From NCBI RefSeq assembly GCF_044324785.1, contig NZ_CP172127.1: a DNA stretch of 64,000 bases; one strand, given 5' to 3'. Origin of the DNA: Escherichia coli (GTDB lineage: Bacteria; Pseudomonadota; Gammaproteobacteria; Enterobacterales; Enterobacteriaceae). The translations under genes and the position numbers were made by a program. Of this stretch, positions 5,276 through 19,768 are shown piece after piece. The notes below the pieces were generated by a model. It searched no databases. It had not been told where the DNA came from and saw only the letters and a list, made by a program, of their open reading frames with translations. Numbering within the stretch: the stretch's first letter is position 1; every line of letters starts with the position of its first letter.

Positions 5276-6955
<1,680 letters not shown>

Positions 6956-7208
6956 TTATCGGGCTTTTATTTAAGGGTAGTCATTCGCTCCGCCTGGTGG
7001 GCGACAAACCGTGCGGTGGATCACGTTTATTAACCTGTCAAAAAATATAACGCACTAATATCCATGGAATTTATAAAAATACAGATTTCGTGTTGTTTTT
7101 CATTTTCAGAACATTCAATCCTGCTCTCGCCGCAATCATGATATGCCATTCCTGATCTGGGTAATAGGCACAGGCTATCTTATTGATAGTTTATATTCAT
7201 GTAATTGA

Positions 7209-7222
7209 TTGATTCCTATCAA
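7209..7222. promoter_or_regulatory. FNR-type box TTGAT-N4-ATCAA upstream of yhjA
   Basis: Exact palindrome ttgattcctatcaa about 110 bp upstream of the yhjA start; yhjA is known to be FNR/OxyR controlled. Confidence 0.5.
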
Positions 7223-7329
7223 AAAGCGTATTTCCCTGTTTTTTATGATGGCTTTGTCTCGCAGAGACGTTTGCAGCATTCTGGAAAATTTTCTGGGTCA
7301 CAATAACTCACCACCGTGAGGGAAGAATA

Positions 7330-8727
7330 ATGAAAATGGTCTCACGTATTACCGCGATCGGCCTGGCTGGCGTCGCGATTTGCTATTTAGGGTTATCTGG
7401 TTATGTGTGGTACCACGATAATAAACGCAGTAAACAGGCTGATGTTCAGGCATCTGCTGTCAGTGAAAATAATAAGGTTTTAGGCTTTCTCCGCGAAAAA
7501 GGATGCGACTATTGCCACACGCCTTCGGCAGAATTACCCGCCTATTATTATATTCCTGGCGCGAAACAGTTGATGGATTACGACATTAAGCTTGGATATA
7601 AATCTTTTAACCTCGAGGCCGTGCGTGCGGCTCTGCTGGCTGATAAACCCGTTTCGCAAAGCGATCTGAATAAGATTGAATGGGTGATGCAGTATGAAAC
7701 CATGCCACCAACGCGTTATACCGCGCTACACTGGGCGGGTAAGGTGAGTGATGAAGAGCGGGCGGAAATACTCGCCTGGATTGCAAAACAGCGTGCGGAA
7801 TATTACGCCAGCAATGACATTGCTCCGGAGCATCGCAATGAACCGGTGCAGCCCATCCCGCAAAAACTGCCTACCGATGCGCAAAAAGTGGCGTTGGGCT
7901 TTGCGCTGTATCACGATCCCCGTTTATCGGCTGATAGCACCATTTCATGCGCTCATTGCCATGCGTTGAATGCGGGGGGCGTCGATGGCAGAAAAACATC
8001 GATTGGTGTTGGTGGCGCAGTGGGGCCGATTAACGCGCCGACGGTATTTAACTCAGTATTTAACGTTGAGCAGTTCTGGGATGGTCGTGCGGCAACATTG
8101 CAGGATCAGGCTGGTGGACCGCCGTTGAATCCGATTGAAATGGCGTCGAAATCCTGGGACGAAATTATTGCTAAGCTGGAAAAAGATCCGCAGCTTAAAG
8201 CGCAGTTCCTTGAAGTCTATCCGCAAGGTTTCAGTGGCGAAAATATTACTGATGCCATTGCTGAATTTGAGAAAACATTAATTACGCCGGATTCCCCATT
8301 TGATAAATGGTTGCGTGGAGATGAGAATGCGCTGACGGCACAACAGAAAAAAGGCTATCAATTATTTAAAGATAATAAATGTGCAACTTGTCATGGTGGT
8401 ATTATTCTCGGCGGACGTTCCTTCGAACCGTTGGGGCTGAAAAAAGACTTTAACTTTGGTGAAATTACGGCGGCGGATATTGGTCGTATGAATGTTACTA
8501 AAGAAGAGCGCGATAAATTGCGTCAGAAAGTACCCGGTTTACGTAACGTTGCACTAACGGCACCGTACTTCCATCGCGGTGATGTGCCGACGCTGGACGG
8601 GGCGGTGAAACTGATGTTGCGCTATCAGGTAGGCAAAGAGCTGCCGCAGGAGGATGTGGATGATATCGTAGCTTTCCTGCACAGTCTGAACGGGGTTTAC
8701 ACGCCGTATATGCAGGATAAACAATAA
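7330..8727 (+). CDS. yhjA: Di-heme cytochrome c peroxidase YhjA/Ccp (465 aa)
   Basis: N-terminal TM anchor and heme-binding CxxCH motifs (CAHCH, CATCH) visible in translation. Confidence 0.9.
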   Translation: MKMVSRITAIGLAGVAICYLGLSGYVWYHDNKRSKQADVQASAVSENNKVLGFLREKGCDYCHTPSAELPAYYYIPGAKQLMDYDIKLGYKSFNLEAVRAALLADKPVSQSDLNKIEWVMQYETMPPTRYTALHWAGKVSDEERAEILAWIAKQRAEYYASNDIAPEHRNEPVQPIPQKLPTDAQKVALGFALYHDPRLSADSTISCAHCHALNAGGVDGRKTSIGVGGAVGPINAPTVFNSVFNVEQFWDGRAATLQDQAGGPPLNPIEMASKSWDEIIAKLEKDPQLKAQFLEVYPQGFSGENITDAIAEFEKTLITPDSPFDKWLRGDENALTAQQKKGYQLFKDNKCATCHGGIILGGRSFEPLGLKKDFNFGEITAADIGRMNVTKEERDKLRQKVPGLRNVALTAPYFHRGDVPTLDGAVKLMLRYQVGKELPQEDVDDIVAFLHSLNGVYTPYMQDKQ

Positions 8728-18941: not shown

Positions 18942-19514
18942 TTATTGCTGCTTAACGAACAAACTGGCGAAGCTGAACAGGCTGGCGGCGCTAAATATCA
19001 GTTCAATACCCACCAGTGTGGAAACCAAAGTTACAGACACCATCGGCGTTGCACCAAGGAATATCCAGGCAATGACGATATCCAGCACACCAATAACGAG
19101 CTGTAGCCAGCTGCCTTTCATTGAACGCTGACGATACCAACTCATCAGGCGAATAACCCCTGCAACACAGAACAAACCGGCAATAAATGCCGCAATGGCA
19201 AAAATGCCCAGCTCCGGTGCGCGGATGAAGAAATAGCCGATCAATAAATAGGCGACTGCGACGAGGAAACCGGATAATACCGGCCAGAAATTATGACTGC
19301 GGTTGCTGAATAACCCGACAATAAGCGCAATGCCCGAGCAGATTAATAATGCACCCACTACTGTGCTTAAAATATCGCCAGAGACGAACGGGAAACTGAT
19401 ACACAGCAACCCGACGATAAACAGTAGCACGGCAATAAACTGGATTGCTCTGCGATGCTTTTTCAGCATCTCCAGATCAAACTTCAAAATTGTTGCCTTA
19501 TCTATATATAACAT
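18942..19514 (-). CDS. hdeD: Acid-resistance membrane protein HdeD (190 aa)
   Basis: Multi-TM ORF divergent from hdeAB. Confidence 0.9.
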   Translation of the reverse strand: MLYIDKATILKFDLEMLKKHRRAIQFIAVLLFIVGLLCISFPFVSGDILSTVVGALLICSGIALIVGLFSNRSHNFWPVLSGFLVAVAYLLIGYFFIRAPELGIFAIAAFIAGLFCVAGVIRLMSWYRQRSMKGSWLQLVIGVLDIVIAWIFLGATPMVSVTLVSTLVGIELIFSAASLFSFASLFVKQQ

Positions 19515-19768
19515 AGAACCACCCTATAAAATTAAGAAGAAAATCCCCTGCTATCAATCTATGCCAAAAACGCGTCTAAGAATGCAGTCGATTTAATAAA
19601 AATTTCCTAATTGCAGTATCTGATGCATCTGTAACTCATTGTATTGAAATAAAAATATCTGATTTTGATATTTTCCATCAACATGACATATACAGAAAAC
19701 CAGGTTATAACCTCAGTGTCGAAATTGATTCGTGACGGCTCTTTCACTTTATAGTTGAGGATATTACG

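Follow-up and report, generated by a model that had tools for sequence, protein, structure and literature searches.

A perfect FNR box next to an OxyR-type site in the promoter of the Escherichia coli cytochrome c peroxidase gene ccp (yhjA)

The spacer between treF and ccp (yhjA) of Escherichia coli contains a perfect FNR box, and the question raised by this locus is whether that box is a working part of the ccp promoter and under which conditions it would be occupied. The preferred answer, to which a probability of roughly 0.9 is given, is that the box is the FNR site of the ccp promoter, a class II activator site that forms an AND gate with OxyR. The box is an already published and curated FNR site and its recognition adds no new biology; it explains why E. 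coli restricts its periplasmic peroxidase to conditions that combine a lack of oxygen with the presence of H2O2, an explanation already established in 2007 and 2017. The additions made by the present analysis are modest, and consist of an apparently ancient and rigid regulatory module, a 'silent' label attached to a functional site, and a second perfect box near chuT.

The DNA examined was a stretch of E. coli chromosome of 64,000 nucleotides (the window), and both the sequence of the box and how far it is unique were determined directly from it. Reading of the sequence and a pattern scan each gave an exact TTGAT-N4-ATCAA, TTGATTCCTATCAA, at positions 7209-7222, so that the perfect palindrome claimed by an earlier sequence-only reading was confirmed, with 10 of the 10 half-site bases matching the consensus. 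Two perfect boxes were present in the window, the second at 26623-26636. The number expected per 64 kb was 0.15 as estimated from dinucleotide-preserving shuffles of the window (n = 100), and two boxes were reached in 3 of the 100 shuffles. The gene order around the box is treF (- strand), a spacer of 404 bp, ccp (+ strand) and gadA, and the order in K-12 strain BW25113 is yhjB, treF (-), ccp (+) and gadA. The divergent spacer has a GC content of 39.6%, compared to roughly 52-58% in the flanking coding sequence. The centre of the box is located 114.5 nt upstream of the ccp ATG and its end 107 nt from the same codon, in agreement with the distance of about 110 bp that had been proposed. The ccp open reading frame encodes 465 amino acids with the N-terminus MKMVSRITAIG and is annotated in RefSeq as ccp, cytochrome c peroxidase. 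The protein contains Haem_bd, CCP_MauG (di-haem peroxidase) and Cytochrom_C domains together with three CxxCH motifs, and both the domains and the annotation bear out the earlier assignment of the downstream gene as yhjA. The features of the promoter and leader are given in Table 1.

Table 1. Positions of the features of the ccp promoter, leader and gene within the 64,000-nucleotide window
Feature	Position	Strand	Remarks
OxyR-type site ATAGgcacaggCTATcttattgATAGtttatatTCAT	7164..7200	+	Centre 7182, about -74 from the inferred transcription start
Exact IHF core consensus WATCAANNNNTTR (AATCAATCAATTA)	7202..7214	-	Overlaps the 5' half-site of the FNR box
FNR box TTGAT-TCCT-ATCAA	7209..7222		Half-sites 7209-7213 and 7218-7222, centre 7215.5
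-10-like hexamer TATGAT	7244..7249	+	21 nt after the FNR box; read from the sequence
Inferred transcription start, G	7256	+	7 nt after the -10 hexamer; from promoter geometry
Inverted repeat GTCTC-gca-GAGAC	7256..7268	+	Begins exactly at the inferred ccp +1; possible 5'-terminal hairpin
Hairpin CTCAC-cacc-GTGAG	7307..7320	+	3' arm reaches into the Shine-Dalgarno sequence GAGGGAAG; possible anti-Shine-Dalgarno stem
ccp (yhjA), regulated gene	7330..8727	+	Tri-haem membrane-anchored cytochrome c (quinol) peroxidase

A consensus scan of positions 6900-7360 did not detect a full sigma-70 promoter on the + strand. The ccp promoter is missing a -35 consensus, and the position where this element would lie is occupied by the 3' half-site of the FNR box. 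The missing sigma-70 match on the ccp strand is consistent with a promoter that depends on an activator, and is not taken to speak against a promoter there. Typically class II FNR sites have their optimum near -41.5. A transcription start at position 7256, the exact base being placed by promoter geometry, would give a leader of 74 nt and put the centre of the FNR box at -40.5. With the TATGAT hexamer at its observed distance from the box a class II site near -40.5 is implied, and the box would therewith sit at an activating position. The published transcription start is said to agree with the one placed here.

Two short local hairpins were found in the ccp leader, the fold of the whole leader being unremarkable (z -0.46), and an Rfam scan of positions 6900-7450 gave no family at E values up to 1. 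The inverted repeat at +1 has counterparts of different and compensating sequence at the equivalent position in Citrobacter (GTCT/AGAC, GTCC/GGAC and GTCTT/AAGAC), Trabulsiella, Providencia burhodogranariea, Hafnia and an enterobacterial metagenome-assembled genome. In Pluralibacter an inverted repeat is visible by eye at +1, and the computed fold put the stem elsewhere. Among the orthologous ccp leaders compared, the hairpin was absent from three Providencia and from Entomohabitans. The repeat may form a stabilising stem-loop at the 5' terminus of the transcript, and its position independently supports the inferred transcription start, if weakly. The second hairpin, next to the Shine-Dalgarno sequence, was flagged in the consensus scan as a stem on the - strand and was folded within the mRNA leader. 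Stems adjacent to the Shine-Dalgarno sequence occur in most orthologous leaders, as CUC.../...GAG(G), CUCU/GGAG or CCUC/AGGA, which suggests an element that damps translation or behaves like a thermometer.

The region directly upstream of the FNR box was compared with an OxyR arrangement of ATAGnt-N7-CTAT-N7-ATAG-N7-CTAT, four elements over about 37 bp. The site contains three exact tetrads at consensus spacing, and the fourth tetrad matches at two of its four bases. The window contains two matches to the pattern ATAG-N7-CTAT-N7-ATAG, where 0.19 would be expected. As a separate observation, the second exact match, ATAGGGTGGTTCTATGTTATATATAG, is located at 19502-19527 on the - strand, where hdeD begins and close to the spacer between hdeD and hdeA; the hdeD open reading frame (18942-19514, - strand) belongs to the acid-fitness island and carries this candidate OxyR pattern at its 5' end.

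The conservation of the site was determined directly, first of all within the species. A query of 601 bp around the box matched 5422 of 5426 complete E. coli genomes, in every case on the chromosome, with the annotations 'treF: alpha,alpha-trehalase' and 'ccp: cytochrome c peroxidase' at the matches. The 32-mer at 7196-7227 was identical in 5393 of the 5422 genomes, contained one mismatch in 29 and was disrupted in one, while the surrounding 601 bp were mostly 95-99% identical (98.2% between K-12 and the window). A common variant that appears within a slightly longer 34-mer, G7228A, is outside the box and is found in UTI89 and GTEN_97. In an alignment of six sequences the K-12 (BW25113) promoter differed from the window by one base, downstream of the box, with the box itself identical. 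A side observation concerns strain fS54a (NZ_CM176577.1), the one genome of 5422 in which the box is split by an insertion sequence. The box there reads ...TTGATTCCTA, the element, then CCTATCAAAAAG (locus L044, 1499-2720), and the element is IS5-like, of the ISKpn26 family, with a frameshifted transposase; the spacer of the box is duplicated and the half-sites are held about 1.2 kb apart. This insertion is a natural knock-out of the FNR site, or possibly a promoter change driven by the insertion sequence.

Beyond the species, a scan of a genome collection with the Ccp protein gave 40 loci, which were reduced to 31 non-redundant orthologous loci. A box with at least 9 of the 10 half-site bases and no more than 250 nt upstream of ccp was present in 28 of the 31, where the background for such a box, measured on these loci themselves, is 0.023 per 250 bp. 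More than nine genera are represented, including Escherichia, Citrobacter, Pluralibacter, Trabulsiella, Providencia, Hafnia, Enterobacillus, Buttiauxella, Entomohabitans and Yersinia. The half-sites are retained and the four-base spacer is variable (TCCT, TCTT, ACTT, AATT, AAAA, GAAT, CCTA and others), and when the promoters were stacked on the box the information content was highest at the two half-sites and at the OxyR tetrads. A -10-like hexamer (TATGAT, TATTAT, TATCAT or CATNAT) follows the box by 21-23 nt in most representative orthologues, the best match being further out, 25-26 nt after the box, in two of them. In 30 of the 31 loci the OxyR pattern, taken as at least 10 of 12 bases matched, begins upstream of the FNR box at a distance of exactly 45 nt, and the sole exception is Providencia burhodogranariea, where it begins 56 nt before the box and is displaced by one turn of the helix (11 nt). 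The fixed order and spacing of OxyR-type site, FNR box and -10 element are features of the aligned loci themselves, and on comparative grounds the module is ancient and geometrically rigid across the Enterobacterales.

The rigid offset of 45 nt and its 11-nt variant argue that OxyR and FNR have to be bound in a fixed rotational orientation to one another on the helix, and the 11-nt shift suggests selection on the helical phasing of the two sites. A further proposal would be that the two sites form one rigid composite, in which occupancy by FNR itself needs oxidised OxyR; this proposal is tentative and should be regarded as doubtful. Such dependence may arise through a direct stereospecific contact between the proteins, or through displacement of H-NS or IHF by OxyR. 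If the proposal were correct, recruitment at ccp would be a cooperative act of an oxygen sensor and an H2O2 sensor, not the sum of two independent contacts with RNA polymerase, and it would explain the lack of a ChIP-seq signal at a perfect and conserved box in anaerobic cultures free of peroxide.

The dependence of the gene on FNR and OxyR is taken from the literature. The regulation of yhjA by FNR and OxyR is the subject of Partridge, Poole and Green (2007, Microbiology 153:1499-1507). Among the entries of a RegulonDB curation paper are 'FNR yhjA Activator Anaerobiosis' and, for the second regulator, 'OxyR yhjA Activator'. Binding in vivo is likewise a published result: in the DISTILLER study of Lemmens et al. 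(2009), ChIP-qPCR with FNR-3xFLAG in microaerobic LB cultures validated yhjA and treF, with p values for yhjA of 0.009 and 0.041. According to reviews from the Imlay laboratory, Ccp is induced by OxyR in hypoxic cells, and H2O2 serves through Ccp as a terminal acceptor for the respiratory chain. Myers et al. (2013, PLoS Genet 9:e1003565) tabulated aerobic against anaerobic expression, with a ratio of 0.50 for yhjA. This was read as expression about 2-fold higher without oxygen, because that table gives values of 0.03-0.06 for the nik genes, which FNR activates. Neither yhjA nor treF is mentioned in the FNR ChIP-exo supplements of Federowicz (2014), which therefore lend no independent support. 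A literature search for a yhjA transcription start yielded only genomic-SELEX papers on the gadA-yhjA spacer. The anaerobic activation of ccp by FNR that the sequence-only reading had proposed is therefore supported by the published FNR dependence, by ChIP-qPCR and by a geometry compatible with a class II site.

The preferred mechanism can be set out as follows. In anoxia dimeric [4Fe-4S]-FNR would bind the TTGAT and ATCAA half-sites about 40.5 bp before the start, where it would stand in for the missing -35 element and recruit RNA polymerase to a promoter with the weak -10 element TATGAT; the class II contacts themselves are proposed from this geometry. FNR would not be sufficient alone, because the adjacent OxyR site makes the ccp promoter co-dependent on H2O2, and oxidised OxyR would also have to bind directly upstream, at a centre of about -74. 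A tetramer of OxyR would occupy the upstream site and supply a second contact. The promoter would then operate as an AND gate, open in the absence of oxygen together with the presence of H2O2. At other times H-NS, and possibly IHF, would cover the AT-rich spacer and probably keep the FNR site unoccupied. An AND gate of this kind matches the role of the enzyme, which uses H2O2 as a respiratory electron acceptor.

Several published observations bear on a competing explanation, namely that the box is a high-quality but silent FNR motif, permanently occluded by H-NS and IHF, and that the response of ccp to oxygen comes from OxyR alone or from another regulator, ArcA for example. Table S6 of Myers et al. 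(2013) includes the site, as TTGATAGGAATCAA at yhjA/treF with a PatSer score of 14.16, among the silent predicted FNR sites, and no FNR ChIP-seq peak was obtained there in anaerobic glucose minimal medium. The score is only mid-range because the TCCT spacer is not a preferred one. The enrichment of H-NS and IHF over the box is also taken from that study, in which the H-NS region over the site extends across 3661953-3667384 under anaerobic and 3661345-3668418 under aerobic conditions, and an IHF ChIP-chip region at 3667035-3667586 covers the FNR box. The table of FNR peaks in the hns/stpA deletion strain contains no coordinate near the box, yhjA is not named in the table of FNR-dependent operons, and the paper names only five silent sites for which regulation had been reported before, yhjA not being among them. 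The low GC content of the spacer and the IHF core that overlaps the 5' half-site point in the same direction. This core pattern was matched 10 times in the window where 4.1 matches were expected, an excess of about 2.4-fold that is weak when taken alone, and by eye the motif is retained only in Escherichia, most Citrobacter and Pluralibacter. The overlap with a candidate IHF site, which agrees with the IHF enrichment over the spacer, may contribute to the missing FNR peak.

Permanent silence is nevertheless very unlikely. A decoy would not be expected to keep its half-sites and its distances to the -10 element and to the OxyR site across more than nine genera, and FNR was found at yhjA by ChIP-qPCR in the microaerobic LB cultures. 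FNR is moreover a curated activator of the gene, and the ChIP-seq experiments were run without H2O2, so that the co-activator OxyR would have been inactive. The missing peak would fit the co-dependence of the FNR-OxyR promoter because those cultures received no H2O2. Occupancy of the ccp box by FNR is conditional, and the classification of a functional site as 'silent' on a genome-wide scale means that negative results in ChIP depend on the conditions used.

The box could alternatively serve the divergent gene treF, instead of ccp or besides it, as it is located within the spacer that the two genes share and ChIP-qPCR gave a signal for treF as well as for yhjA. The treF signal is however inseparable from that of the same site. 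The ATG of treF is 290.5 nt from the centre of the box, the treF strand has a single sigma-70-like match (6984-6955), about 265 nt away, and both distances are far outside the positions from which FNR is known to activate or repress. The comparison of genera also argues against this arrangement, since treF adjoins ccp on the upstream side in Escherichia and Citrobacter only. Where this neighbour is missing, as in Pluralibacter, Providencia, Hafnia, Yersinia and others, the OxyR-FNR module persists and holds its distance to ccp, and the box therefore belongs to ccp and not to treF, an association that was observed directly in the loci compared. As a target of the box treF was rejected on distance and on the loss of synteny, and a role there is barely credible.

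A chance palindrome or the site of another regulator such as CRP has practically no probability: AT-rich spacers often contain short palindromes rich in A and T, and CRP and FNR sites are related, but the number of boxes expected in 64 kb is far below one, a check for loss of the motif in orthologous promoters found it present there at a frequency far above background, this conservation of the half-sites across orthologous ccp loci rules out a chance origin, and the half-site has TTGA in place of the GTGA required by CRP. The CRP candidate was rejected on the same base, as TTGAT/ATCAA has a T where the core TGTGA-N6-TCACA requires a G.

The second perfect FNR box of the window, TTGATTTTTATCAA, is an observation in its own right. 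It is located in the chuA-chuT spacer of the chu haem-uptake island, carried by 2236 of 5426 E. coli genomes. The ATG of chuT, at window position 26515 on the - strand according to the O157 annotation, is 114.5 nt downstream of this box, and chuT is the first gene of chuTWXY, an operon for haem transport and anaerobic haem degradation. A paper on the Shigella shuT promoter places the transcription start 42 nt upstream of the ATG and a Fur box at +1 to +19. Transfer of this start to the window gives a transcription start at 26557 and a box centre at about -72.5, which would be approximately a class I-type position, upstream of a promoter of the form TTGAAT-17-TATAAC and the Fur box. Four divergent chu alleles show no variation in the box or the promoter. 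The shuT paper makes no mention of FNR or anaerobiosis, and its promoter-only reporter ends short of the box. From other work, ChuW, which is encoded in the chuT operon, degrades haem anaerobically, and FnrS represses the aerobic haem oxygenase gene chuS. A literature search found no paper linking FNR to the chuT box, and an FNR-type box at this position looks unreported.

The arrangement proposed for ccp can be compared with several known systems. The promoters of nirB and nrfA are class II promoters with FNR at -41.5 and NarL/NarP near -69.5 to -74.5. The ccp promoter would resemble them in that the FNR box replaces the -35 element and an activator specific for a second signal is placed one or two helical turns upstream, with logic of the AND type. 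One obvious difference is that the co-activator of ccp is OxyR, a LysR-type peroxide sensor, which takes up about 37 bp next to the box; a smaller one is the inferred position of the ccp box at -40.5 compared to -41.5. The ccp gene of Neisseria gonorrhoeae is FNR-activated and encodes a di-haem lipoprotein peroxidase that faces the periplasm. Anaerobic control by FNR is shared with E. coli ccp, while the promoter sequences are not known to be orthologous. The remaining silent sites of Myers et al. (2013) are mostly intragenic and without evidence of regulation, in contrast to the ccp box, which is situated in a promoter, is deeply conserved and belongs to a gene whose FNR dependence has been published. 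The yhjA promoter of E. coli K-12 (Partridge 2007; RegulonDB) is the same locus with the same activators, FNR and OxyR, and the window differs from it in strain and in nothing essential.
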